A stretch of 24,000 nucleotides of DNA from an uncultured archaeon (GCA_937974645.1 CALJVH010000013.1:1-24000); one strand, 5' to 3'. Positions 1 to 10,229 are shown, numbered from the stretch's first letter. A program made the numbers and translations. The notes: generated from the letters alone by a model not told the origin.

Positions 1-1088
1 CTATGTATTTCTCGCGCGAGGTCCTCGACCGTCGCGCCCTCGGGCATCAGGTATGCATCTGGTAGTATGCTGCCCTTATGATCTGATAGCTTCTTGACAT
101 CGTAGACCGGGTAGACGGCGCTCATTTTGAGGAGCTTAAAGACCGCGACGTTTAATGCGAACTGCACACCAGTCCTCATATACTCATCCAGAACTTTACG
201 TCTAATTATCTCTAAGGCCCACTTCTGCTTATCCGTCAAGGCTTCTTCGTTAAGGATCTCGAACTTCTCCTCGCCGGGTATGTATTTTATCAAGCCCTTC
301 TGCTCGGCTCTTCTGAGTATCAGCTCCGCCTCCGCGCTGCATGGAACAATTATCTTGTCGACTAGGTTATCCCTAAGCCTCCTAAAGTTTTCGGGCGCGG
401 TATCTAGATCCATCTTGTTAGCGACCACGATTGTCGGCTTCGAGATCTCGCGAAGCGCCGTCACGAACTTACGGTCATCGGAGGGCGTCCAGTTCTCGAA
501 TTCTTTTTTATCTAGCCCCGTGACCTCGAGAGTCTTCTTGATATCCTGTACGGTCACCTTTACTCCCCTGAAAACTTCCTCCATTGCGGCTGGGAGGTCT
601 AAGCCCTTTTTCAGCCCTCTGATGATCTTCTCCTCGGAGCGCTCTAGCAGTTTGATGAACCACATTACCAACTCCTCCTCGATGTCGTAGTAGTCGGCGA
701 GAGGATCCCCTGTCCCGGGTTCAGTTAACCTTCCCTCCTCATCAACGCTTCCACTCGCATCAACAACATGGAGAAGTGCATCCGACTGGGATGCGACGGA
801 AAGGAACTGGTTTCCGAGACCCTTGCCCGCCCAAGCGCCCTTAATTAATCCGGGCAGATCTATGAGCTCTATCGGAATGTGCCTCCACCCATCGATGCAC
901 TTAGAGTTCCTAGGATTATCTTGGACATTAAACTCCCTGCAGACGCATACTGTTACGACATGGGCCGCCCCATAATTGGGCTCTTTCGTCGTGAAGGGAT
1001 AGGTTGATACCTCCGCAGTCCCGAGGGTCGCGGCGTTGAAAAATGTCGTCTTCCCGGTATTCGTCTTGCCTATGAGGCCTATTCTCAC
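1..1088 (-). CDS. Obg/YchF-superfamily GTPase (Ygr210-like), C-terminal end runs off the left edge of the window
   Basis: This gene is absent from the ORF track because it runs off the edge. My reverse-strand translation from GTG 1088 reads VRIGLIGKTNTGKTTFFNAATLG (G1 P-loop), followed later by DLPGL (G3) and NKMD (G4). The frame stays open to base 1. A TATA-like TTTATC (plus 1118-1123) lies 29 nt upstream. In-frame TTG codons at 1091 and 1097 are alternative starts. Confidence 0.8.
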   Translation of the reverse strand, partial: MRIGLIGKTNTGKTTFFNAATLGTAEVSTYPFTTKEPNYGAAHVVTVCVCREFNVQDNPRNSKCIDGWRHIPIELIDLPGLIKGAWAGKGLGNQFLSVASQSDALLHVVDASGSVDEEGRLTEPGTGDPLADYYDIEEELVMWFIKLLERSEEKIIRGLKKGLDLPAAMEEVFRGVKVTVQDIKKTLEVTGLDKKEFENWTPSDDRKFVTALREISKPTIVVANKMDLDTAPENFRRLRDNLVDKIIVPCSAEAELILRRAEQKGLIKYIPGEEKFEILNEEALTDKQKWALEIIRRKVLDEYMRTGVQFALNVAVFKLLKMSAVYPVYDVKKLSDHKGSILPDAYLMPEGATVEDLAREIH

Positions 1089-1179
1089 CAAAGCCAAGCT
1101 TAAGGGCTCACCTCAAAGATAAAGGGAGAGGCTTATAGAAAACTTTATTCCCACCTGGTTTTAAGAGTCCGGCCCTCAT

Positions 1180-1278
1180 TTAAAGCAGGGCTACGAATAG
1201 GAGTATTGCTAGGAGTAGCGTATTCAGGGCTATTAGGGCCGTGAGCTTTATCCGCGAGAGTAGTGACCCCCGCTCCAT
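1180..1278 (-). CDS. candidate 32-aa hydrophobic micropeptide (MERGSLLSRIKLTALIALNTLLLAILLFVALL)
   Basis: The ORF runs from ATG 1278 to TAA 1180-1182 and is too short for the ORF track. It encodes one predicted membrane-spanning helix. An ATTAAA box (plus 1307-1312) lies 28 nt upstream of the ATG, matching the promoter spacing seen elsewhere in the window. There is no homology evidence. Confidence 0.3.
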   Translation of the reverse strand: MERGSLLSRIKLTALIALNTLLLAILLFVALL

Positions 1279-1391
1279 CCTTTGATTAGACTACATCTTA
1301 TGCATGGTTTAATCCTTGTGATTCTAGAGCGGTGGCATCCATATTCTGGACTGTATTCTAGTAATTCTAAAAAATTGTCTATTCGCCTACA

Positions 1392-1973
1392 TCATTCTTG
1401 AACATGTTCCTGCCTACTCTCATCGCCTTGAGCAGGCTCCTCTAGGGGGAACTCAAGAACCGATTTTAGGAGGTTTTGCTGATCTACCTCGACCTTCGTC
1501 CGCCAGCCCACCACGAGCACGTCGTCATCGGTTTTCTCGAGATAGCCTCGCCGAATCGCTCTCTCAATATATGTCTCGGCCTTCCATCTTGGCAGCTTTG
1601 CCTCTAGGACCTCTAGCACATCTCTTAGAGGCGCCTTGCCACCCCTGCTAGCTAGTATTGATAGGGCTACGGCGAGGGCCGCGACCTCATCTATGCTCCA
1701 TCCAGCAGCCACAAGATCCGATAAGGTTTGTTGATGGGATAATACGATGTAGAACTTAGCCTTATCAAGGTCTTCACCCTCCTCGAGGACCGTCTTCACC
1801 TCGAGCCCCATCCTCTTGAGATAGGAGTTCAGGGCATCGATGACCTTCATGTAATTTTTGCCGAGCTTCTGCTTCAGCTCCCATCCCTTGACGCCAGGCT
1901 TGCGGTGGCTCCGGAAGAGAAGCATCGCGGCCGCGGTTGCCAGCTTCCTCGAGAAGCCCTCATCGCTGCTCAT
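1392..1973 (-). CDS. ScpB/kite-like tandem winged-helix protein (putative SMC-kleisin accessory subunit)
   Basis: The 193-aa protein has two winged-helix-like halves. The first is AAAMLLFRSHRKPGVKGWELKQKLG...LKRMGLEVKTV...FYIVLS. The second is ALAVALSILASRGGKAPLRDVLEVL...RRGYLEKTDD..VLVVGWRTKVEV. This pattern resembles ScpB and MAGE/Nse3 family proteins. The gene starts 7 nt after the kleisin-like stop, with a GGAG upstream. Confidence 0.5.
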   Translation of the reverse strand: MSSDEGFSRKLATAAAMLLFRSHRKPGVKGWELKQKLGKNYMKVIDALNSYLKRMGLEVKTVLEEGEDLDKAKFYIVLSHQQTLSDLVAAGWSIDEVAALAVALSILASRGGKAPLRDVLEVLEAKLPRWKAETYIERAIRRGYLEKTDDDVLVVGWRTKVEVDQQNLLKSVLEFPLEEPAQGDESRQEHVQE

Positions 1974-1980
1974 GGTCGCA

Positions 1981-2733
1981 TCAACTCCTCAGGGTTATTA
2001 CGAGGGAAGCTGGCCGCTTTCTCTCCGACTTCTCCCTCCTGGGTATCAGCTTTATCTCATTCTTCAAGGGATTCCTCTTGACGTCGACATAGCCGTTCGT
2101 TATCAGGAAGCTTAGGAGGTATGCCCGCTCGAATGTCTCCTCGAAGCGCCTATCCTGCACGAACTCCCAGTAATCTAGCTCGCCCTCGAGCTCATATCTC
2201 TCGACTAACTCTCTGTGAAGCTGCTCGAGCTTCTCAGCCAATCCTTCCTCGAGATCCAAGCTTCCTTTCACATGCTCGACCTCTCTCTGGGAGACTTTCC
2301 AGCCTAGGCTTCTCACACTAGCCCTCGGCGGCAGGCTGAGGAAATGCTCAACCCCCCGCCTGATCCTGTGAATTGTTATCTGTTCTAGGGAGATTATAGG
2401 CTTCCAAGACTTTAGGAATGCCCTGACTATGGACTTATTGTCGAGCGCGATGAGCCGCGTTTGGATCATTTGAGCATCTATGAAGAGGGATTGAGCCCGC
2501 TCTCTAAGCCACTTGTGCTGAAGAGCGATTAAGGTAGCTATCTTATACATCGTCTCGGCATCTAGGATGTAGTGATCGAGGCCGCCGCCCTCCTCGAGGA
2601 GCTTTCTGAGCCTCTCCAAGAGCGTTCTCACGTTGACCGTGAAAGGGTCCAGCCCCCTCTTCTCGATGTTCTCGCAGATTTTTATTATCCTCTCAAGCTC
2701 CTCTCTCGATACCTTAAATGATTTCGAGGACAT
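1981..2733 (-). CDS. ScpA/kleisin-like protein
   Basis: The 250-aa protein has an N-terminal helical segment (LDPFTVNVRTLLERL...MYKIATLIALQHKWL). It has a C-terminal winged-helix-like segment (AYLLSFLITNGYVDVKRNPLKNEIKLI). Both are arranged as in ScpA. Its ATG overlaps the TAA of the upstream SMC-like gene (TAATG at 2731-2735). Confidence 0.5.
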   Translation of the reverse strand: MSSKSFKVSREELERIIKICENIEKRGLDPFTVNVRTLLERLRKLLEEGGGLDHYILDAETMYKIATLIALQHKWLRERAQSLFIDAQMIQTRLIALDNKSIVRAFLKSWKPIISLEQITIHRIRRGVEHFLSLPPRASVRSLGWKVSQREVEHVKGSLDLEEGLAEKLEQLHRELVERYELEGELDYWEFVQDRRFEETFERAYLLSFLITNGYVDVKRNPLKNEIKLIPRREKSERKRPASLVITLRS

Positions 2734-4490
2734 TACTCCGGCCTCCCGATTACAGATTTACCACCAATATTCTGCACTAGGATAACGTTTACGCCCTCCT
2801 TCACGGGGATCTTTCCGGGAGTAATTATTATGTACTGGGATCTCGGCTCTTGCTCGGCCACATTCATCAGGAGCTTTATCATCCTCTCGCGGTTTAGGGG
2901 GTCTAGGTGGACGTCAAACTCGTCAACCGCTCTGAAAGGTGACTTGATGTATCTCTGGAGGGCTAGAAGGAACGCGAGCGTCCCAACAATTCTCTCTCCA
3001 CCACTATGCGTTTGAGCGTCAAGTAGAACCGGCTCGGCGCCCCGGAACCCGACATGAAGCTCTATGCTGGCCTTCTCGGGGTCCTCCAAGTTTCTCAACA
3101 CTATCCTGCCGGCGCCATCGACTATCGAGAGAATAGAATAGAACTTGGGCTCCACTTCCTTCACCAGCTCTCTCAGGAATTTTCTCCAGAGTTCCTTCCT
3201 GTACTCAAGCTCTTCCATCGCCTTTTTCAGGTTCTCCTCGAGCTCCGCGGACTTCTGCTCGGTCTCCCTATACTTCGCATCGGCAACGAGATACATGTCT
3301 TCAGCCTCTTCAAACACTTCCCCAAGAGATGCTATCTGGAGCCCAATAGATCGCACATCTTCGAGTATCTCCGAAGGTTTTCTTGAGGTCTTAACCCTCT
3401 CACCAAGGGCTGAAGCATTCCTGATCTTTTCCATGAGGTCTTTCTCGATCCTATTGAGTTCGTAGCCGAGCCTTTTCTGTTCCGATCTATTCTCCTGAAG
3501 TCTGTACTTCGCAACTTCAGCGAGTCCCTTCTCATCTAGGAGAATATCCAAGTCCTTCTCGAAGCCTTCTAGGTTCACGAGCTCGCCGCGCTTGACCGCA
3601 TCTATCAGGCTCAGGAGCTTCCGTCTAACACTCTCCACCTCGCCCTCATGATACTCTATCTCCCCTAGGAGCTTTCTTTCCTCGAGCATGAGCGCCTCGA
3701 TCCTCTCCCTGAGCTTATTCGCTGATAACTCGGCCTCCGAGACAAGTGCCCAAGCATGCTCGAGCTCGAGCCTCCTCCTCTCCTCCTCGAGCCTTCTCTT
3801 CATCACGAGCTTCTCATACTGCTCCTTCCAGTAATCTACCGCGGCCTTGGCCTCCTCTAGCGCTCTTTTCAAGCTCTTCTCCTGCGCTTGTATATCCCTA
3901 AGCTTCACCTCCGCTTCAATTATCCTCTGCCTGAACTGTGATGCGCCAACTGCATCCTCAATCATCCTTAGCTTCTCGACGCTATTCTTCGAAGCGAACT
4001 CCTCGATCATGTTCTGATGCATTATTATCAGCATGTTGTTCGGGTTGATCCCTAGCCTTCTCAAGAGATGATCCACCTCTGCCTTTGTTTTGAGCCTATT
4101 ATTGACGTAATGCCAGTATTCGCCGGTCCTCTTCAAGTATCGCGTTATCACGAGCTGGTCTGATTGCAACCAGGAGATCGGCTTCTTCCCATCGGCCTCA
4201 GCATTGTCGAAGATTACCGTTAGCCTCGCGGCCTTTTCACCTCTCCTTATCAGGTCGCTGAGCTTTCCAGCCCTATCCGTATACGTTTGGCCGAGGGCCA
4301 CGGCTATCCCGAGAAGGATCGAGGACTTTCCAGCACCATTAGGGCCAGTAATTACATTGAGCCCTGGGGAGAGAGTGATTCTAGAATACTCATGGCTCAT
4401 AAAATTCTCCAAGATGACTTCGCGAATATGAGTGCCGGTGGGTTTGGAAATTTCTTCCAGCGCGCCGGCGGATTTCTCGTCTGATGCCAT
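2733..4490 (-). CDS. short SMC-family ABC ATPase (585 aa) with Smc5/6-like head motifs, no hinge and no zinc hook
   Basis: Recognisable head motifs are Walker A GPNGAGKSS, a Q-loop-like MHQNMIEEF, the signature HSGGER, and Walker B/D-loop SPFRAVDEFDVHLD. About 280 central residues are heptad-rich and charged. There is no cysteine anywhere in the protein. Confidence 0.8.
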   Translation of the reverse strand: MASDEKSAGALEEISKPTGTHIREVILENFMSHEYSRITLSPGLNVITGPNGAGKSSILLGIAVALGQTYTDRAGKLSDLIRRGEKAARLTVIFDNAEADGKKPISWLQSDQLVITRYLKRTGEYWHYVNNRLKTKAEVDHLLRRLGINPNNMLIIMHQNMIEEFASKNSVEKLRMIEDAVGASQFRQRIIEAEVKLRDIQAQEKSLKRALEEAKAAVDYWKEQYEKLVMKRRLEEERRRLELEHAWALVSEAELSANKLRERIEALMLEERKLLGEIEYHEGEVESVRRKLLSLIDAVKRGELVNLEGFEKDLDILLDEKGLAEVAKYRLQENRSEQKRLGYELNRIEKDLMEKIRNASALGERVKTSRKPSEILEDVRSIGLQIASLGEVFEEAEDMYLVADAKYRETEQKSAELEENLKKAMEELEYRKELWRKFLRELVKEVEPKFYSILSIVDGAGRIVLRNLEDPEKASIELHVGFRGAEPVLLDAQTHSGGERIVGTLAFLLALQRYIKSPFRAVDEFDVHLDPLNRERMIKLLMNVAEQEPRSQYIIITPGKIPVKEGVNVILVQNIGGKSVIGRPE

Positions 4491-4518
4491 CTTCTCTAAG
4501 GCGTCTGAGACATCCCCG

Positions 4519-4524
4519 TATTAA
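4519..4524 (-). promoter_or_regulatory. TATA-like box (TTAATA) for the SMC-like operon
   Basis: The box lies 28 nt upstream of ATG 4490. The same spacing recurs at other genes in the window. Confidence 0.4.
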
Positions 4525-4668
4525 GGGATATGCTCATAGATGCATAGGGGCATTATCGCGAAAATCTCCCCGGATTATCTGGGCGGCCAGATTTATCGGG
4601 ATAAAAGCTATTTTAAGATGCTCTGCAGAATCCTTCAACGGGAGAAATAATTCATAAATGGATGGTGG

Positions 4669-5079
4669 ATGCTTGTGGAGATTGACGTCAAGACGACGCT
4701 CGAGAAGTTTAGGAGGTTCATGATACTGAATACCTGCTATTCCTTCATTCCGAAGGGTTATTTCAAAGATCCATCCATCTTCCCGGAGAGAGAGCCCCCT
4801 GGGAGAATACATGTGGAGGCGCTCTCGAAGCTTAGCCTAGAAGTGATTAGGGAGATAAGGTTCGTTAAGGCTTACGAGGTTCTTGGAATCATATATAATT
4901 CCAAGAGCGGGAATACCAACCTAATCTGGAGACAAGTCAAGGGAACTATTGGAAGGGCTTCGGGTAAAGCCTCCCCAAATTCCATTGTGAACCTGATAGA
5001 AGCTGAAGTTCTCCCAAAATCTTATGTGAAGAAATTCCTCAAGGAGCTTGAGACTCGGCCTGGATCAGAGGAGACGTAG
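4669..5079 (+). CDS. hypothetical protein (136 aa)
   Basis: Codon usage (GAG, AAG, AGG/AGA) matches the neighbouring genes, unlike the overlapping minus-strand ORF. No family was recognised. The promoter and start are less clear than for other genes. The 3' end overlaps amzA by 15 nt in a convergent arrangement. Confidence 0.45.
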   Translation: MLVEIDVKTTLEKFRRFMILNTCYSFIPKGYFKDPSIFPEREPPGRIHVEALSKLSLEVIREIRFVKAYEVLGIIYNSKSGNTNLIWRQVKGTIGRASGKASPNSIVNLIEAEVLPKSYVKKFLKELETRPGSEET

Positions 5080-5580
5080 CTTTGTAAGACATCGCTTACA
5101 AGGCATGTTCATTTTGTAATCTGTATCAATTATCGAATTGCTGAATGCCATTACGCATCTTCTATCGCTGCAATGGGTTAGCCCATGGAGGTGGCCTACC
5201 TCATGCACGACTTCCTTTAACACTCTCTCCTTGAAGAGTTCGCGGTCGGATTGTTGGCCATAGAATTCGGGGAAGAGCCTGTGGACGGATATTATTGCCA
5301 CACCCCTCCAAGCAAGCCCGAAGACAAAATTCAGTCCCGCTGCATAAAGATCCTTATCCGTTATCAGAAGTATATACTCATTCTCGCCGAGTATTCCGCG
5401 ATAGTATTGGACTATCTTCCATGCATCATATTGGCCCCTATCAGGGTTAAGAAAATCTTCCCCAATCAGATCCTCGGCGAGCTGTATCTCAACCTCTCCG
5501 TCATAAACTTCTTCCAGTATTTTGGCAACCGCTTCAAGCACCTCGTCATCCATGATGTCTGAAATTACTTTTATTCTCAC
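5065..5580 (-). CDS. amzA: archaemetzincin (zinc metallopeptidase)
   Basis: The sequence HEVGHLHGLTHCSDRRCVMAF...PCKRC matches the archaemetzincin signature HExxHxxGxxHCxxxxCxM...CxxC. Confidence 0.9.
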   Translation of the reverse strand: MRIKVISDIMDDEVLEAVAKILEEVYDGEVEIQLAEDLIGEDFLNPDRGQYDAWKIVQYYRGILGENEYILLITDKDLYAAGLNFVFGLAWRGVAIISVHRLFPEFYGQQSDRELFKERVLKEVVHEVGHLHGLTHCSDRRCVMAFSNSIIDTDYKMNMPCKRCLTKLRLL

Positions 5581-5581
5581 T

Positions 5582-6115
5582 TTAATCCCTCCTAGGTCTT
5601 CTCCTCAGCTTATGGCCGCATCGCGGGCATGGGTTACCCGGCTTATCATATCCAACCCATCCGCAAGCCCCGCAATAAACCTCCCAAGTTATGACCTCCC
5701 TTATACCTTGATGGAGTATGGGCTTAACTTTTAGCCCCAACTTGGAGGCCAAGTTCTGGATCGAGTAATCGGAGGTGAGGATGCACGTGTCCCAGCCTAG
5801 CTTCGATGCCTGCAATGCGAGTGCGAGAACGCTGATATCGGCTTCAGAGAGCTCGATCTCGCCAAGCTTACGTGCTGCTTCTCGAGCCTTCTCCACATAC
5901 ACCGGCTCAGGCTCCATCACTTTTATTGATCCGCCTTCTTGGGCGGCGAGAACCCTATATCTTGCCTCGCGATCCCTAGCCTCCTCTAACACCTTGCTCG
6001 ATGTCACAGCAACCGCGTCTTCCACTTGTGTGAAGCCCAAGATCAGGGCTGCCGCATCCAATACGATAATTCTCTTAGCTGAGCTTCTTTCTAATTCGTC
6101 TCGCAAGTCCTCCAC
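5582..6115 (-). CDS. nob1: Nob1-like PIN-domain endoribonuclease with C-terminal zinc ribbon
   Basis: The N-terminal PIN-like region contains IIVLDAAALILG, LSEADISVLALA and LTSDYSIQN. The C-terminal zinc ribbon is CGACG...CPRCG. Size and architecture match archaeal Nob1. Confidence 0.7.
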   Translation of the reverse strand: MEDLRDELERSSAKRIIVLDAAALILGFTQVEDAVAVTSSKVLEEARDREARYRVLAAQEGGSIKVMEPEPVYVEKAREAARKLGEIELSEADISVLALALQASKLGWDTCILTSDYSIQNLASKLGLKVKPILHQGIREVITWEVYCGACGWVGYDKPGNPCPRCGHKLRRRPRRD

Positions 6116-6884
6116 CCGGCCTCAGCCTGAGGAAGGCGACGCGCCTACTCGACATGCTCACTGTAATCACTATCGATTTTTTGTCAAATTTCTTCAGACG
6201 GTAGCCATCTATCAGGATCGAGAAGCCGTAGTCGCCGCCTGCCACCACCTCTATCCCACGCTCAAGAGAAAGTACTATGGGCTTGAGACCCGTGATTGGG
6301 CAGATTGGAGTAAGGATCGCAGCTCCCAGAGCATCATCAACTATCGGGCCTCCGGCTGAGAAGCTGTAAGCCGTCGAGCCTATCGGAGTCGCGATTATTA
6401 AGCCATCCGCCAACCCCTCAGCAAGTTTCTCGTCATCTACCCTTACCTCGAAGCTCAGCGTCTTTCCCAAGACTTGAGATGCGATATATGCCTCATTGAG
6501 CGCATCACCGATCTTCTCGCCATCTACAGCTATTGAGAGAAGCATTTCGTGCTCCACCAGATAGTTTCCTGCGAAAATTCTTCTCATAGCTTCCTCGAGC
6601 TCTTCCGCCTCAACCTCGGTGAGGTAGCCGCCTCTCCCAAAGTTTACGCCGAGAATCGGGGTCTCGGAGCCCGGTAATGCTCCAACGGTCTTCAGTATCG
6701 TGCCATCACCTCCCAGGGTGATTACCAGTGAAGCCTTCTCGGGAAGGGGCTCACTGGCAAGCTTCGAGGCGCTGTAGATCTCGGCGGCCACACCTCTGCC
6801 CTCCAAAATCTGCTTAGCCTTCTCTGCCGCCTCTCGCGCCCTCGGATTCCGCTCAGTATAGACTAGCGCGTAGAACTCGCCCAT
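6075..6884 (-). CDS. nadK: NAD kinase
   Basis: The motifs LGGDGTILK, NEAY and GSTAYSFSAGGPIV are characteristic of the NAD kinase family. Confidence 0.9.
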   Translation of the reverse strand: MGEFYALVYTERNPRAREAAEKAKQILEGRGVAAEIYSASKLASEPLPEKASLVITLGGDGTILKTVGALPGSETPILGVNFGRGGYLTEVEAEELEEAMRRIFAGNYLVEHEMLLSIAVDGEKIGDALNEAYIASQVLGKTLSFEVRVDDEKLAEGLADGLIIATPIGSTAYSFSAGGPIVDDALGAAILTPICPITGLKPIVLSLERGIEVVAGGDYGFSILIDGYRLKKFDKKSIVITVSMSSRRVAFLRLRPGGGLARRIRKKLS

Positions 6885-6910
6885 CCGATCTCATCTCTTT
6901 AATGGGGCGG

Positions 6911-6946
6911 TTAATTTAGGTTCTCTCCGGCGAGCACCTTTAATTA
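6911..6946. promoter_or_regulatory. divergent TATA-like boxes for nadK (TAAATTAA on minus, 6911-6918) and purP (TTTAATTA, 6939-6946)
   Basis: The boxes lie 26 nt and 25 nt upstream of ATG 6884 and ATG 6972 respectively. This is consistent with leaderless transcripts. Confidence 0.5.
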
Positions 6947-6971
6947 GGTGTTGGACTCCAGCATTTGAGCC

Positions 6972-8111
6972 ATGAGTGGTAAGGATGAGATAGCCTCGAT
7001 AATCAAGGGTTATTCTAAGGATGATCTCAGGATCGGGGTTCTCGGAAGCCATTCAGCCCTCGAGATATGCAGGGGCGCAAAGGATGAAGGCTTCAAGACA
7101 ATCGTCGTCTGCGAGAGGGGGAGGGAGAAGACTTACACCAAATACTATAGGGCTAGGATGATGTTTGGCCGCGAGGTCGGCGTCGTCAACGAGGTAATTG
7201 TTCTCGACAAGTTCAGGGAGATTCTCCGCGACGAGGTGCAGGAGGAGCTTAAGTCCAGGAACACAATATTCATTCCCCATAGATCTCTCTGCGTCTACGT
7301 GGGTTACCGGGCTCTGGAGAAGGAGTTCAGGGTGCCCATGTTCGGGAACAGGTTCCTCCTGAAGATCGAGGAGCGGGATGTGGAGCGCAACCAGTATTAT
7401 TTGATGGAGAGAGCCGGGATCCCTCATCCGAGAGTCTTCAAGGATCCATCAAAGATCGATAGGCTCGTGCTTGTTAAAGCTCCGGAGGCGGCGAGGGGGT
7501 TTGAGAGAGCATTCTTCTTGGCCTCTTCGCCCAAGGAGTTTGAGGAGAAAGCTGAGGATCTTATCCGGAGGGGCGTCCTGACCAGGGAGGGGCTTGAAAG
7601 AGCTGTGATCGAAGAGTTTATCGTCGGCGCACCATTCAACTTCAACTTCTTCTACTCCCCGCTCACTGGAGAGGTCGAGCTCCTCGGCGTGGATACGCGG
7701 AGGCAGACGAACCTTGAGGGTATCATGAGGATACCCGCGCCATATCAGGCTGAGGCCCTCAGGCACCTAGAGCTCAAGACCATCGAGGTCGGCCACATAG
7801 CCTGCACTGTTAGGGAGTCTCTCCTCGAGAGGGCGTTCGAGCTGGCTGAGAAGCTCTTGGAGACTGCGAGAGATGAGTATCCTCCGGGGATCATAGGCCC
7901 CTTCGCGCTCCAGAGCATGATTGTTCCTGGCCCGCCGCATGAGGACATAGTGGTCTATGATCTGAGCGTCAGGGTCCCCGGATCGCCTGGAACAAAGTTC
8001 ACGCCATACTCCGAGAACTTGTGGAACTTCCCGATGAGTGTTGGGAGGAGGATCGCGGTCGAGATCAGGGAATCCTTAAAGCAGGATAGGCTCCTCGATC
8101 TCGTAACATGA
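6972..8111 (+). CDS. purP: PurP-family ATP-grasp enzyme (FAICAR synthetase family), paralog 1
   Basis: The N-terminus IGVLGSHSALEICRGAKDEGF and the C-terminal regions IGPFALQS and SVRVPGS...MSVGRRIA are typical of archaeal PurP. The glycine-rich loop is replaced by PEAARGFERAFF. Confidence 0.8.
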   Translation: MSGKDEIASIIKGYSKDDLRIGVLGSHSALEICRGAKDEGFKTIVVCERGREKTYTKYYRARMMFGREVGVVNEVIVLDKFREILRDEVQEELKSRNTIFIPHRSLCVYVGYRALEKEFRVPMFGNRFLLKIEERDVERNQYYLMERAGIPHPRVFKDPSKIDRLVLVKAPEAARGFERAFFLASSPKEFEEKAEDLIRRGVLTREGLERAVIEEFIVGAPFNFNFFYSPLTGEVELLGVDTRRQTNLEGIMRIPAPYQAEALRHLELKTIEVGHIACTVRESLLERAFELAEKLLETARDEYPPGIIGPFALQSMIVPGPPHEDIVVYDLSVRVPGSPGTKFTPYSENLWNFPMSVGRRIAVEIRESLKQDRLLDLVT

Positions 8112-9208
8112 TATCTAGGGAGGAGCTGCTGAGAATCCTCTTCGAATACAGGGAACAGGATATCAGGATCGCGACAATCTGCTCCCATTCATCTCTCCAG
8201 ATATTTCATGGCGCGAGGCTGGAGGGCTTCGGCACCATAGGAATAGCTTTGAGGAGGAATAGACCGTATTACGAGAGCTTCTTGAGGGCAAGCCCCGAGA
8301 CTATGCTGGAGGTCGAGAGCTACAGGGATATCCTGAGAAAGGAGTTTCAGGAGAAGCTCCTCTCCGAGAACGCTCTGATAATACCCCATGGCTCCTTCGT
8401 CGAGTACGTTGGAGCCGAGAACATTCTCGAGAGGCTTAGGGTCCCGATGCTCGGGAATAGGCTCACCCTCTACTGGGAAGGCGATAGGGAGAGGCAGAGG
8501 AGGTGGCTCAGGGAGGCCGGGGTTAGGGCTCCAAGGCGATACGCGTCGCCGGATGAGATATGTTGTCCGGTCATGGTCAAGCTTCACGGTGCAAAGGGCG
8601 GAAGAGGATACTTCAGGGCATCAAGCCCGAGCGAGTTCAGGAAGAAGCTCGAGGAGCTTAAGATGAGGGGCTACATGAGCGGCGAGAGCAGCTATATCAT
8701 AGAGGAGTTCATCCCGGGAGTCAGGTTTTATCCCCACTTCTTCCTCTCGCCTCTCGAGAAGCCGAATCTTCCGGGGCTTGAGCACGGCAGGCTAGAGCTC
8801 CTCGGAATGGATCGGAGGCTTGAGATCATAGACGAGGTTTATCGAGGGCTCCCAGAAGTCATCGAGGACTACCTAGATTACACCGTGGCCGGAAACACAC
8901 CGGTTATCGTCAGGGAGAAGTTTATCGTGGATTTGCTGGAGGCAGCCGTAAAGATCGCATCTGCGGCGTGGAGGCTCTTCAGCCCGGGTCTGATAGGCCC
9001 CTTCTGCCTCGAGACGATATATCATCCAAAGTATGGGTTCACTGTTTTTGAGGTCTCGGCTAGAATAGTTGCTGGAACAAACCTGTACCCGATGGGCTCG
9101 CCCTACTCCTCATACTATTACGATGAGCCGATGTCGATGGGCAGGAGAATAGCGAGAGAGGTAAGGAACGCCATCAAGCTCGGTAGATTAAGCGAGCTCA
9201 TATACTAA
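8108..9208 (+). CDS. purP: PurP-family ATP-grasp enzyme, paralog 2
   Basis: The motifs IATICSHSSLQIFHGARLEGF, GAKGGRGYF, IGPFCLE and MSMGRRIA are present. There is a 4-nt ATGA overlap with paralog 1. Confidence 0.8.
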   Translation: MISREELLRILFEYREQDIRIATICSHSSLQIFHGARLEGFGTIGIALRRNRPYYESFLRASPETMLEVESYRDILRKEFQEKLLSENALIIPHGSFVEYVGAENILERLRVPMLGNRLTLYWEGDRERQRRWLREAGVRAPRRYASPDEICCPVMVKLHGAKGGRGYFRASSPSEFRKKLEELKMRGYMSGESSYIIEEFIPGVRFYPHFFLSPLEKPNLPGLEHGRLELLGMDRRLEIIDEVYRGLPEVIEDYLDYTVAGNTPVIVREKFIVDLLEAAVKIASAAWRLFSPGLIGPFCLETIYHPKYGFTVFEVSARIVAGTNLYPMGSPYSSYYYDEPMSMGRRIAREVRNAIKLGRLSELIY

Positions 9209-9229: not shown

Positions 9230-10229
9230 TTATAATCCCCTTTCTTCCATTCTCACGAGGAGCTTCTCTACCTCTAGGCCTGCCATCGGCTCGCCGATAT
9301 CCCTACATATCTCCGCAAGGGCTTCGGGTTCATCGTAGTGTTTTACAGCCTCGACTATTGCTCTGGCCATCTTCTTCGGGTTGGAGCCCTTAAAGATCCC
9401 GCTCCCGACGAAGACTCCATCCATGCCCATGTGCATCATGAGGGCCGCGTCGGCCGGCGTTGCCACGCCTCCCGCCGCGAAATTTACGACAGGCACCCTC
9501 TGGAGCCTTTTAATCTCTAGAAGGATCCCGTATATCCCCTCGACTATCTCCTTAAATGTGTATTCCTCGTAGATGGGCTCATTTTTGAGAGCTTCTCTTG
9601 GTAGGCCGCATTTTTCCTTGACTTCCATGCTGAGCTTGAGGTAGGGCTTGGAGAACTCCTCGGCGATCCTGTATATCTCGTCGTCGGCCAAGTGTTTGAG
9701 AAGCCGGATATTGTGATTCACGAGCCTAACGTGTTTGACGGCCTCGACGATGTTCCCCGTTCCGGCCTCTCCCTTCGTCTGCGGCGCCTTCCCACAGTCT
9801 CCTCACAGCTTCCCCCAAGTCCCTGGCGCCGCAGACGAATGGAGTCTTAAGCTTCCTCTTATCTACGTGAAAATAGGTGTCGGCCGGCGTCAACACCTCG
9901 CTCTCATCAATCATATCTACTCCGAGGGCTTCCAAGACGAGCGCCTCGCCGTAGTGGCCTATCCTAACCTTAGCCATGACCGGTATCGTAACCGCATCCA
10001 TTATCTCCTGGATCTTCTTCGGGTCCGCCATCCTCGCAACACCGCCTGCCTTTCTTATGTCGGCTGGAACCTTCTCGAGGGCCATTACCGCGATTGCTCC
10101 AGCTTCCTCAGCTATCACCGCTTGCTCGGCGCTGGTGACATCCATGATTACCCCGCCCTTAACTATCTTGGCAAAGCCCCGCCTGAGCTTCTCAGACCCT
10201 TTTTGCCCGATGATCCGGAGAATCTCCAT
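9230..10229 (-). pseudogene. pdxS: pyridoxal 5'-phosphate synthase subunit PdxS, disrupted by a frameshift near 9779-9780
   Basis: Two ORFs (9726-10286 and 9230-9721) together cover PdxS. The N-terminal part is GGVIMDV...[23 protein letters not shown]...[20 protein letters not shown]. The frame then changes to [18 protein letters not shown]...[19 protein letters not shown]...[10 protein letters not shown]. The likely true start is ATG 10229, which is preceded by GGAGGT. Confidence 0.8.

Follow-up and report, generated by a model that had tools for sequence, protein, structure and literature searches.

A hinge-less, short-armed member of the archaeal SMC5/6-related family encoded in a Caldarchaeales operon

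Introduction

An archaeal operon encoding an SMC-type ATPase, a kleisin, and a kite was described bioinformatically by Yoshinaga & Inagaki (2021; PMC8665677) under the name “SMC5/6-related”, and the same family was treated by van Hooff et al. (2024/25; bioRxiv 10.1101/2024.01.07.573240). The published complex occurs in TACK archaea, explicitly including the Caldarchaeales, and according to Supplementary Table 3 of the latter study the Caldarchaeales have an SMC5/6-related set as well as a canonical one. Both studies used head alignments from which the coiled coil had been cut out by hand. The family has been named and placed on trees, and it is known from sequence rather than from experimental characterization. 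In the searchable texts and supplements on the family, neither hinge loss nor arms of about one third the normal length are mentioned.

Two other systems share this general plan. The eukaryotic Smc5/6 core (Smc5-Smc6-Nse4-Nse1-Nse3) is built on a hinge-joined Smc5-Smc6 heterodimer, and prokaryotic Smc-ScpAB is encoded by an SMC, kleisin, and kite operon. RecN, Rad50/SbcC, and the ASRPs (coalescin ClsN/Sph) are also SMC-superfamily ATPases that lack a canonical hinge. None of these three is known to use a kleisin or kites. Rad50 and most ASRPs dimerize through a CxxC zinc hook (for ASRPs, PMC9389158).

Arm length and the apex module are changeable, as seen with engineered mini-Smc proteins and hinge-to-zinc-hook swaps (Burmann et al. 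2017, PMC5344682; Tatebe et al. 2020, PMC6969161). Such constructs are laboratory versions of canonical Smc and Rad50, whereas the archaeal form described below is natural. A natural “hinge-less” SMC of marine actinobacteria was reported as new in 2025; the accessible part of that report concerns a bacterial protein annotated as canonical SMC (COG1196) and mentions no kleisin or kite partners (PMC12153180). In contrast, the archaeal hinge-less form is widespread in archaea, is Smc5/6-related, and keeps both its kleisin and its kite.

Organization of the Locus

The window, i.e., the whole 24,000-nt stretch of DNA analyzed, derives from a Wolframiiraptor-like member of the Caldarchaeales (Aigarchaeota), a hot-spring-type archaeon. 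The operon and all features described here lie on its minus strand. The first gene (2733..4490) encodes a 585-aa, hinge-less, SMC5/6-related SMC-type ABC ATPase, assigned from its ORF, Pfam and PDB matches, an AF2 model, and Foldseek. It is followed by a gene for a 250-aa Nse4-like kleisin (1981..2733; ORF, junction, Pfam, and family profile) and one for a 193-aa Nse1/Nse3-like kite with tandem winged helices (1392..1973; ORF, junction, AF2, Foldseek, and Pfam). At the ATPase/kleisin junction, GGAGTAATGTCC, the stop codon TAA (2735-2733) overlaps the next ATG (2733-2731) to give TAATG. The kleisin stop codon, TGA (1983-1981), is separated by a 7-nt gap from the kite ATG at 1973, upstream of which GGAG occurs within “ctgaggagt”. 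The three ORFs and both junctions are as given in an earlier note made from the sequence, and the tight, co-oriented spacing suggests that the genes are translationally coupled.

On inspection of the sequence, a candidate archaeal TATA-like element, TTAATA (4519..4524), lies 29-34 nt upstream of the ATPase ATG, a position that would give a near-leaderless mRNA. At the other end, a T6 run (1369..1374) lies 18 nt past the kite stop codon and is a candidate terminator, since archaeal RNA polymerase terminates at oligo-T.

The operon is adjoined by genes for a YchF-type GTPase, a 136-aa protein of unknown function, and archaemetzincin, and its housekeeping neighbors further include NAD kinase and PurP. 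No candidates for Nse2, Nse5, or Nse6 were found among the adjoining ORFs, none for an Mre11/SbcD partner among the translated window ORFs in 1..9000, and no canonical SMC in the 24-kb window.

The ATPase Head

The ATP site of the 585-aa protein is complete and strongly conserved, with ATPase motifs that are invariant across the family (alignment A3; 48 representatives). By motif position, the Walker A/P-loop GPNGAGKSS occupies residues 49-57 (4320..4346), the Q-loop region MHQNMIEEF residues 157-165 (3996..4022), the ABC signature HSGGER residues 495-500 (2991..3008; also from alignment A3), and the Walker B/D-loop SPFRAVDEFDVHLDPLNR residues 517-534 (2889..2942). All four had been picked out in the earlier note. 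GPNG.GKSS, with A or S as its fifth residue, and MHQNM are invariant in alignment A3, and the family-wide Walker B/D-loop motif is SPFRAVDEFDVHMD. D-loop counterparts are DEFDVFMD in Smc6, DEINQGMD in Smc5, and DEIDAHLD in canonical SMC.

At the switch/H-loop position, QYIIITPG (residues 552-559; 2814..2837), TP stands in place of the canonical residues. Among regex-matched sequences, TP is found here in 63 of 66 family members, 15 of 15 Smc5, and 11 of 12 Smc6 proteins, but in none of 10 canonical archaeal SMCs, where (S/T)L(K/R/H) occurs instead. The TP switch and a DEFDV-type D-loop are common to the archaeal ATPase and eukaryotic Smc5/6.

Similarity searches agree with the motifs. Pfam SMC_N matches residues 22-566 (6.6e-34), and the best PDB sequence matches are Smc5 (9.8e-33 and 4.3e-32), ahead of Pyrococcus Smc (1.5e-27) and Smc6 (1.3e-25). 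Foldseek searches with the AF2 model (pLDDT 85) placed a Pyrococcus Smc head, coiled-coil, and joint construct (5xei) and Smc5/6 heads at the top, and in a library of 1.84 billion proteins the nearest relatives outside the family were eukaryotic Smc5- and Smc6-type proteins and canonical SMC. In a neighbor-joining tree of heads, canonical SMC was separated from the family plus Smc5 and Smc6 in 100 of 100 bootstraps. The profile, structure, and tree evidence thus agrees that, within the SMC family, the ATPase belongs with Smc5/Smc6 and not with Rad50, RecN, ASRP/coalescin, canonical Smc, Lamassu, or Wadjet. An Smc5/Smc6 affinity had been suggested in the earlier note and a head phylogeny had been proposed there.

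Profiles of named relatives scored far below their cut-offs. For canonical Smc, TIGR02169 gave 198.1 bits (cut-off 729.4), and the second score of TIGR02168/02169 was 148.5 (cut-off 567.35). RecN (TIGR00634) gave 28.5 bits (cut-off 407.85), the NCBIfam models of Rad50/SbcC 26.7-60.9 bits (cut-offs 700-1087), and the ASRP model NF045487 74.7 bits (cut-off 300). RecN and ASRP resemble the archaeal ATPase in size, the ASRP profile having 593 positions. The ATPase has no cysteine, and therefore no CxxC zinc hook of the Rad50 type.

Arm and Apex

Between the head halves of this ATPase lie only 240 residues, where Smc5/6 has about 700-720 and canonical SMC about 850. In the AF2 model, an outgoing helix of 117 aa, or about 17 nm (residues 184-300, DSSP; 3591..3941), leads to a 6-residue apex loop, RGELVN (301-306; 3573..3590), at the site of a hinge or hook, and a returning arm (307-455; 3126..3572) completes the hairpin. 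The earlier estimate of ~130 residues per arm gives way to about 117 outgoing and about 149 returning, and the 117-residue arm also sets the protein apart from eukaryotic Smc5/6. Two breaks in the returning helix (363-371 and 389-395) form a conserved joint-like segment in the model, and the returning arm carries a conserved block, GERV..RKP.EILEDIK...LQIASLG, in alignment A3. The closest structural counterpart of the model is a “head + coiled coil + joint” fragment engineered from Smc.

SMC_hinge found no Pfam match in the ATPase even at E<=1, and no hinge-like sequence was found elsewhere in the 24-kb window. Together with the hairpin apex and the lack of cysteine, this upholds the claim that hinge and zinc hook are both missing. 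The apex is the most variable, indel-rich stretch of alignment A3, with no residue of 251-350 conserved at >=70% among the 48 representatives. As modeled, the arm is a roughly 17-nm antiparallel helical hairpin ending in a short, unconserved loop.

Kleisin and Kite

The second protein had been proposed to be a kleisin, and it proved to be one of the Nse4 type. Pfam Nse4_C matches it at 0.0023 and matches 12 of 20 of its homologues (best 9.9e-7), and a profile of the kleisin family finds yeast Nse4 at 1.1e-4, human EID3 at 0.024, and the ScpA C-domain at only 0.34. The Nse4_C-like, C-terminal winged helix spans residues 186-235 (2029..2178; Pfam and family profile).

For the third protein, the AF2 model (pLDDT 79) contains two winged-helix units (residues 3-78 and 94-155), as expected of the tandem winged-helix kite that had been suggested. 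The fold is of the Nse1/Nse3/MAGE type: the top four Foldseek matches are to MAGE-G1/NSE1 (5hvq) and Nse1-Nse3-Nse4 (7dg2), followed by MukE. Among kite homologues, weak Pfam matches to MAGE occur in 7 of 24 and to SMC_Nse1 in 2 of 24. The profile search advised in the earlier note has thus yielded SMC_N, Nse4_C, and MAGE/SMC_Nse1 matches in the family. RRGYLEKTDD begins at residue 141 and VLVVGWRTKVEV at residue 152. Eukaryotes have an Nse1 with a RING and a distinct Nse3, whereas the archaeal operon has a single kite with no cysteine and no RING.

Place in the SMC5/6-Related Family

The window triplet is a member of the published archaeal SMC5/6-related family and not a new one. Its head groups with Smc5/Smc6, it has an adjoining Nse4-related kleisin and an adjoining Nse1/Nse3-related kite, and the three proteins, gene order, and taxa all match the described complex, with no difference that bears on membership. 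The novelty proposed in the earlier note therefore fails for the triplet, which already has a name, and stands for the hinge-less architecture, as far as the searchable texts and supplements go.

More broadly, the eukaryotic Smc5/6 core supplies the best sequence and structure matches for the three proteins as a set. It differs in having two ATPase subunits joined by a hinge, where the archaeal operon has one ATPase gene and no hinge. Smc-ScpAB shares the operon content and the expected 2:1:2 architecture, and its Pyrococcus Smc fragment is the best single structural match; however, the archaeal triplet has no SMC_hinge and no ScpA/ScpB Pfam matches, and its kleisin profile favors Nse4 (1e-4) over ScpA (0.34).

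The short form is common. The best 120 ATPase homologues are 551-636 aa long, except for one of 477 aa, and the hinge-less, short-arm form dominates the archaeal family by sequence, accounting for 48 of 53 scorable clusters (50% identity) in several archaeal classes. In the head tree, the relatives that do have a hinge take a basal position within the family, with support of only about 50%, and a CxxC zinc-hook form (CDKCG) is nested inside the short clade. A survey of the triplet's conservation, also suggested earlier, found the SMC-kleisin-kite order kept in 12 of 12 archaeal loci that include downstream DNA (Bathyarchaeia, Methanomethylicia, Thermofilales, and Hadarchaeales) and in two further Caldarchaeales loci.

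Possible Mechanisms and Roles

The reading that we favor, and consider probable with ample room for doubt, is that this hinge-less, short-arm SMC5/6-related operon of the Caldarchaeales encodes a 2:1:2 head-proximal DNA clamp for chromosome maintenance. The mechanism is drawn by analogy with Smc-ScpAB, MukBEF, and the Smc5/6-Nse1/3/4 core, from which we infer the stoichiometry, the kleisin bridging, and the DNA clamping. Since there is a single ATPase gene, the ATPase would form a homodimer, and the 2:1:2 complex would consist of two such subunits together with a single kleisin and a dimer of kites. The kleisin would contact both ATPases, with its N-domain bound to one at the neck and its C-terminal winged helix bound to the second at the cap. 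ATP would sandwich the heads and so form a surface on their top that binds DNA, and the kleisin-kite module would close over the DNA, as in the clamp state of Smc5/6, a head-neck-kleisin-kite arrangement whose parts all have counterparts in the archaeal operon. Without a hinge or hook, the dimer could be kept together by the kleisin bridge, by engagement of the heads on ATP binding, and perhaps by contacts between arms lying side by side; in hinge-less Smc of B. subtilis, dimerization is aided by arm-arm contacts (PMC5526789). The complex would then act as a head-proximal clamp or gripper rather than a 50-nm ring. A short arm is no guarantee of SMC-like function, since engineered B. subtilis Smc arms are functional only within certain ranges of length and the shortened “Mini-Smc” (CC293) does not work (PMC5344682, PMC5526789).

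Alternatively, the short arms may dimerize at or near the apex by packing of their tips, as in the apex contacts of RecN or MukB, giving a closed mini-ring or rod that, with the kleisin, would entrap DNA or translocate in short steps as a true miniature SMC motor. We regard this as a serious but doubtful option. The zinc-hook variants found inside the short clade imply that closing the apex is of use in the lineage, or at least that apex dimerization can matter there, and the Rad50 hook and SMC hinge are interchangeable dimerization modules (PMC6969161; hook swaps, PMC5344682). The number of residues between the heads also clusters in two ranges, 225-277 and 295-359, suggesting that arm length is constrained. 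Against this, the apex is unconserved with frequent indels, and the ATPase has neither cysteine nor hinge, although such an apex is still compatible with dimerization by generic coiled-coil packing. The zinc-hook form, moreover, is a stand-alone gene, and it may have a different task because no kleisin or kite adjoins it.

A RecN- or Rad50-like tether, in which the heads bind DNA ends or junctions and bridge molecules during recombinational repair together with an Lhr-type helicase, is improbable. In three lineages (L024, L025, and L026), an Lhr helicase gene (DEAD + WHD_Lhr + DEAD_assoc) does lie beside the operon or close to it, but none is adjacent in this window or at the other loci examined. 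The size and arm length of the ATPase resemble those of RecN, and eukaryotic Smc5/6 is described as working on recombination intermediates. On the other side stand the low RecN and Rad50 scores and the presence of a kleisin and kite, which those proteins do not use. This reading concerns biological role more than mechanism, and it overlaps with the head-proximal clamp.

The earlier note had offered a nuclease-less defense or surveillance module, either Lamassu/Wadjet-like or akin to the restriction of extrachromosomal DNA by Smc5/6, and this now seems very unlikely. LmuB and JetC do have SMC-type heads, LmuB is similar in length to the archaeal ATPase, and PADLOC matched the ATPase to mad3 (1.2e-31), LmuB (1.8e-21), and JetC (7.9e-7). 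Wadjet is described as a complex of the SMC type that takes part in DNA immunity, and Smc5/6 is termed a restriction factor against viral replication. However, the PADLOC matches are limited to the generic ABC/SMC head, with none to defense families for the kleisin or kite, and the partners are Nse4-like and Nse1/3-like, with no LmuA/LmuC, JetA/B/D, or nuclease genes adjoining. The operon occurs in several archaeal classes, with housekeeping neighbors here and varied, non-defense neighbors at the other loci examined, and its GC content is no different from that of its flanks.

That the gene is a decaying remnant of a full-length SMC, or a gene-calling artifact, is refuted despite its half-canonical length, as homologues keep a length of roughly 550-690 aa across 48 clusters at 50% identity and retain invariant ATPase motifs, and the gene preserves tight junctions to conserved partner genes.

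Significance

If the head-proximal clamp is correct, its likely role would be in chromosome maintenance, whether in repair, in the handling of junctions, or in segregation, alongside canonical Smc-ScpAB, the coexistence of the two being drawn from data for the order Caldarchaeales rather than from the host genome (bioRxiv 10.1101/2024.01.07.573240). The locus encodes a scaled-down relative of the Smc5/6 complex that maintains eukaryotic chromosomes, one in which the ATPase has no dimerizing hinge and has lost about two thirds of its arm.

Operon Structure and Genomic Neighborhood

The operon consists of three minus-strand genes, which encode a 585-aa SMC-type ATPase (2733..4490), a 250-aa Nse4-like kleisin (1981..2733), and a 193-aa Nse1/Nse3-like kite (1392..1973), with coordinates exactly as the earlier note had given them. 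Its account of the junctions was likewise confirmed. At the ATPase/kleisin junction, GGAGTAATGTCC, a TAA stop and the next ATG overlap within bases 2731-2735, and at the kleisin/kite junction TGA is followed by a 7-nt gap and an ATG, with GGAG located just 5′ of this start codon. The motifs that the note had quoted were all found in place, and the reported lack of cysteine in the ATPase is genuine (0 Cys); the kite has none either. As read from the sequence, a T6 run lies 3′ of the last stop codon of the operon and a TTAATA element ~30 nt 5′ of its first ATG; these are a candidate archaeal terminator and a candidate archaeal TATA box of the ATPase gene, respectively. Neither the GC content nor the skew of the operon departs from its flanks.

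The neighbors of the operon are housekeeping genes. Beyond the T-run, and on the same minus strand, is a YchF/OLA1-type GTPase gene (3-1112, running off the start of the window) with the motif GKTNTGKTT; a matching Logan contig, L029, carries the GTPase domains MMR_HSR1, YGR210-like_G4, and TGS. Upstream are genes that we take, from their translations, to encode an archaemetzincin, a NAD kinase, and two PurP paralogues. The last are tandem plus-strand genes of 379 and 366 aa (6972-8111 and 8108-9208) with a 4-nt overlap, whose translations in the ORF list resemble PurP-type (ATP-grasp) FAICAR synthetases. On the plus strand, pointing away from the ATPase gene, is an ORF of 136 aa (4669-5079), which overlaps a 92-aa ORF on the minus strand (4534-4812). 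It is 62% identical to a gene at the same position (9433-9870) in a distant Caldarchaeales locus, L024, where the counterpart also adjoins archaemetzincin, and by this sequence comparison the ORF is a real conserved gene. It has no Pfam match and is not adjacent in a second Caldarchaeales locus, L025.

Identity of the ATPase and Its Partners

Identification of the triplet as an SMC-type ATPase, a kleisin, and a kite, as proposed in the earlier note, is supported by profile, structure, and tree results. Pfam places SMC_N over residues 22-566 of the ATPase and finds no SMC_hinge in it. The best NCBIfam match is SMC_prok_A, at 198 bits versus a cut-off of 729, and the protein falls far under the cut-offs of the ASRP, Rad50, RecN, and RecF models. 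Among all PDB sequences, Smc5 of human and yeast scores best (9.8e-33 and 4.3e-32); next come head constructs of Pyrococcus Smc (1.5e-27), then Smc6 (1.3e-25), and Rad50 does not appear before ~1e-7. Two head motifs add detail. At the H-loop (switch) position, (I/L)TP is found in 63 of the 66 family sequences with a match, in all 15 Smc5 sequences and in 11 of 12 Smc6 sequences, whereas (S/T)L(K/R/H) replaces TP in the ten canonical archaeal SMCs. A second family motif, SPFRAVDEFDVHMD, compares with DEINQGMD of the Smc5 type, DEFDVFMD of the Smc6 type, and DEIDAHLD of canonical SMC.

Several other identities were considered. Rad50, RecN, RecF, ASRP, arcadin-4, and canonical SMC were ruled out by NCBIfam cut-offs and missing hallmarks. 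A split gene, with the hinge in another part of the window, was also ruled out, as tblastn with four hinge regions returned nothing.

The kleisin alone matches Pfam Nse4_C weakly (0.0023), but the domain is matched by 12 of 20 kleisin homologues, at best with 9.9e-7. A profile of the kleisin family finds yeast Nse4 (1.1e-4) and human EID3 (0.024), both ahead of the ScpA C-domain (0.34). The kite is modeled as two successive winged-helix units (pLDDT 79), and its best four Foldseek matches are crystal structures of MAGE-G1(Nse3)/NSE1 and Nse1-Nse3-Nse4, with MukE next; weak matches to Pfam MAGE or SMC_Nse1 occur in nine of 24 kite homologues. Both assignments and their Smc5/6 flavor thus come from profile and structure tools. 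As a separate observation, positions 115-184 of the kite family profile A2 (the second winged helix) have as their best PDB sequence match the C-terminal residues 325-391 of 9x1n_G (E=0.0033), a “5'-3' nuclease encoded next to Rad50 and Mre11 homologs”, which outscores the MAGE-domain protein 7dg2_C (0.077). This likeness probably reflects a shared winged-helix module.

A Short Arm Without a Hinge

An AlphaFold2 model of the ATPase, built from a 27-sequence alignment (pLDDT 85, pTM 0.63), shows a bipartite head and a single unbroken 117-residue helix (184-300), followed by a six-residue loop (301-306) and a return arm (307-455) that is broken at 363-371 and 389-395. A rise of ~0.15 nm per residue gives the arm a length of ~17 nm; canonical SMC arms measure ~47-50 nm (PMC5344682). 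The closest PDB structure to the model is 5xei, a Pyrococcus construct engineered as a “Smc head with a coiled coil and joint”; the head regions of Smc5 and Smc6 come next. Judged by the model, the natural ATPase is in effect a head, neck, and joint with a short coiled-coil cap.

Across 48 short representatives the heads are strongly conserved. In residues 251-350 of the same set, no position reaches at least 70% identity, and indels at the apex are frequent, so that no conserved hinge- or hook-like interface is present there.

Distribution and Synteny

The nearest homologues of the ATPase (92% identity) belong to Candidatus Wolframiiraptor (Wolframiiraptoraceae, Nitrososphaerota/Caldarchaeales), and the best 120 are all 551-636 aa long save one of 477 aa. 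When 1.84 billion cluster representatives were searched exhaustively with HMMER, the family sequences in which both head halves could be scored comprised 48 short-form clusters (225-359 residues from one head half to the other), three of ~1016-1047 aa, and two of 928-982 aa. Outside the family comes a gap in score and then eukaryotic Smc5-type, Smc6-type, and canonical SMC sequences. A pattern scan of contigs gave ten true archaeal loci, none from Caldarchaeales. Wherever an archaeal locus extends far enough downstream, it keeps the ATPase-kleisin-kite order; such loci represent Bathyarchaeia, Methanomethylicia, Thermofilales, Hadarchaeales, and an unclassified archaeon. The order is also kept in two further Caldarchaeales lineages. 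Cluster names extend the family to Thermoprotei and a “Halobacteria archaeon” MAG. The short form is conserved over Caldarchaeales, Bathyarchaeia, Methanomethylicia, Thermoprotei/Thermofilales, and Hadarchaeales.

Two further genes recur near the operon. The first, div4, is a conserved gene of ~224-231 aa that Bathyarchaeia, Methanomethylicia, and Hadarchaeales carry upstream of their SMC gene and on the strand opposite to it. The copies, all on the minus strand, are in L001 (2453-3136), L003 (1644-2318), L004 (1584-2279), L014 (3152-3829), L009 (1543-2220), and L013 (315-995). The gene directly adjoins the SMC gene in L001, L003, L004, and L014, and is 1.8-3 kb off in the other two. The copies share 42-54% identity with one another, have no Pfam, NCBIfam, or PDB profile match, and are unrelated to the 136-aa gene of the window; div4 is absent from the window and several other loci. 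Its product could be an accessory subunit or loader. The second encodes a Lhr-type helicase (DEAD, WHD_Lhr, DEAD_assoc). In two Caldarchaeales lineages (L024, 13104-15932, and L025, 9137-12010, both minus strand) it directly follows the kite gene, and in L026 (from 10586, plus strand), the locus of the hinge-bearing relative P0379, it is two genes away. None occurs in the window. This adjacency, recurrent but not universal, hints at repair.

Head Phylogeny and a Possible Exchange of Apex Modules

In 100 of 100 bootstraps of a neighbor-joining tree (94 sequences, 298 trimmed head columns), canonical SMC splits from all other sequences: the family, Smc5, Smc6, and a small group with Asgard members. 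Smc5 and Smc6 each form a clade with 100% support. Two hinge-bearing proteins, P0390 and P0379, are at the base of the family with a support of only ~50%. Three long CxxC proteins sit deep within the short clade: the trio plus P0333 has 91% support, and short forms that are monophyletic without the CxxC proteins have 0%.

By sequence comparison, the hinge-bearing relatives have a genuine SMC hinge. Pfam SMC_hinge matches the Asgard Freyarchaeum protein P0403 at 4.6e-11, and the middle region of P0379 is homologous to it (3e-11). Kleisin and kite genes are downstream in these relatives too, the kleisin of the Asgard locus going undetected by the narrow family profile. The CxxC forms, from Bathyarchaeota, carry a Rad50-hook-like C-D-K-C-G-S at the midpoint of a ~710-720-residue arm region and fall under the ASRP cut-off. 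At the one CxxC locus inspected, L023 (2105-5248), neither kleisin nor kite adjoins. Four Bathyarchaeota members of the family, of ~1016-1047 aa (P0352, P0353, P0366, and P0391), have C-D-K-C-G-S or C-E-R-C-G-S at the midpoint of the arm.

Most economically, the ancestral form would have had a hinge; the loss of this hinge and of the distal arm would fall at, or close to, the base of the short clade, and hook and long arms would be later gains. The hinge-bearing basal relatives suggest that the Smc5/6 ancestor had a hinge, and the nested zinc-hook variants bear on how freely the apex module is swapped. Two proteins of ~630 aa, P0396 and P0402 (~305-309 residues between head halves), group with hinge-bearing P0403 and not with the main short clade (83/100), which hints at an independent, second hinge loss.

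Relation to Published Families

Yoshinaga & Inagaki (PMC8665677) defined “SMC5/6-related aSMC”, mainly from TACK archaea. Van Hooff et al. (bioRxiv 10.1101/2024.01.07.573240) described one archaeal complex related to condensin/cohesin and another made of a SMC5/6-related SMC, a Nse4-related kleisin, and a Nse1/3-related kite; their Table S3 lists Caldarchaeales genomes in which these three genes occur together with canonical SMC, kleisin, and ScpB-like ones. Since Caldarchaeum homologues of the window ATPase are all ~581-588 aa, and the search of 1.84 billion representatives found nothing else between the family and eukaryotic Smc5/6, we infer that the catalogued Caldarchaeales “SMC5/6-related” proteins are the short family. 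The triplet is a member of this published family, known from sequence.

In both studies the coiled coil was taken out before tree analysis. In the main texts of the two papers and the supplements of the preprint, “hinge” is confined to figure legends and to introductory text of a generic kind, and the archaeal proteins are never called “shorter” or “truncated”. A full-text literature search returned no paper on hinge loss in archaeal SMC5/6-related proteins. A hinge-less actinobacterial SMC was presented as a novelty in 2025 (PMC12153180). The novelty here lies in a short-arm architecture without a hinge as the predominant state of the family, and in an apex that varies (none, hinge, or zinc hook) inside the Smc5/6 lineage. 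The increment is architectural and mechanistic, not the discovery of a new system, as the gene family was published before.

Proposed Mechanism and Significance

SMC complexes are thought to require a hinge and ~50-nm arms for DNA entrapment and loop extrusion, and the share of SMC chemistry held by the head-kleisin-kite clamp alone is still debated. A head-proximal DNA clamp is seen in structures of Smc5/6, cohesin, condensin, and MukBEF. In the short form the clamp parts (heads, necks, kleisin, and kite) are present and conserved, and the parts that close a large lumen (hinge and long arms) are absent; for this reason a 2:1:2 head clamp is favored. Controlled by ATP, the heads of such a complex would clamp or grip DNA. 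The kleisin bridge and head engagement would keep the dimer together, perhaps with help from contacts between the arms. As a precedent, hinge-less B. subtilis Smc still dimerizes partly via its arms (PMC5526789). Contacts at the apex itself are the substance of the main rival, a closed mini-ring or rod, for which residues 251-350 offer little conservation. The defense reading (Lamassu, Wadjet, MADS, PtuA, or Gabija) was ruled out, the PADLOC matches being to the generic head and the partner genes being absent, and a defense role is unlikely. A remnant gene is also unlikely beside such conserved heads and gene order. The role of the head clamp would probably be chromosome maintenance, in parallel with canonical Smc-ScpAB.

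A broader proposal is possible, though we hold it to be somewhat short of probable: the hinge-less form may be a distinct SMC-kleisin-kite class, with open arms never joined at the apex, that works as a head-proximal, ATP-driven clamp. The Smc5/6 lineage would in that case have an exchangeable apex: a single early event in TACK-type archaea would have removed the hinge, and some Bathyarchaeota would subsequently have acquired long arms with a Rad50-like zinc hook.

The archaeal lineage nearest to eukaryotic Smc5/6 is mostly a natural mini-SMC, with a full set of heads, neck, joint, kleisin, and kite and a 17-nm hairpin arm without a dimerization module. The capability of a SMC-kleisin-kite complex without a hinge thereby becomes testable. 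The thermophile-type source and the Cys-free ATPase and kite are handy for site-specific cross-linking and structural work, and interest should be moderate to high for SMC specialists. If the proposal is true, the complex would serve as a small, thermostable, naturally cysteine-free model for dissection of the clamp step, and the closest prokaryotic relatives of eukaryotic Smc5/6 would reveal SMC activities that need neither a hinge nor long arms.
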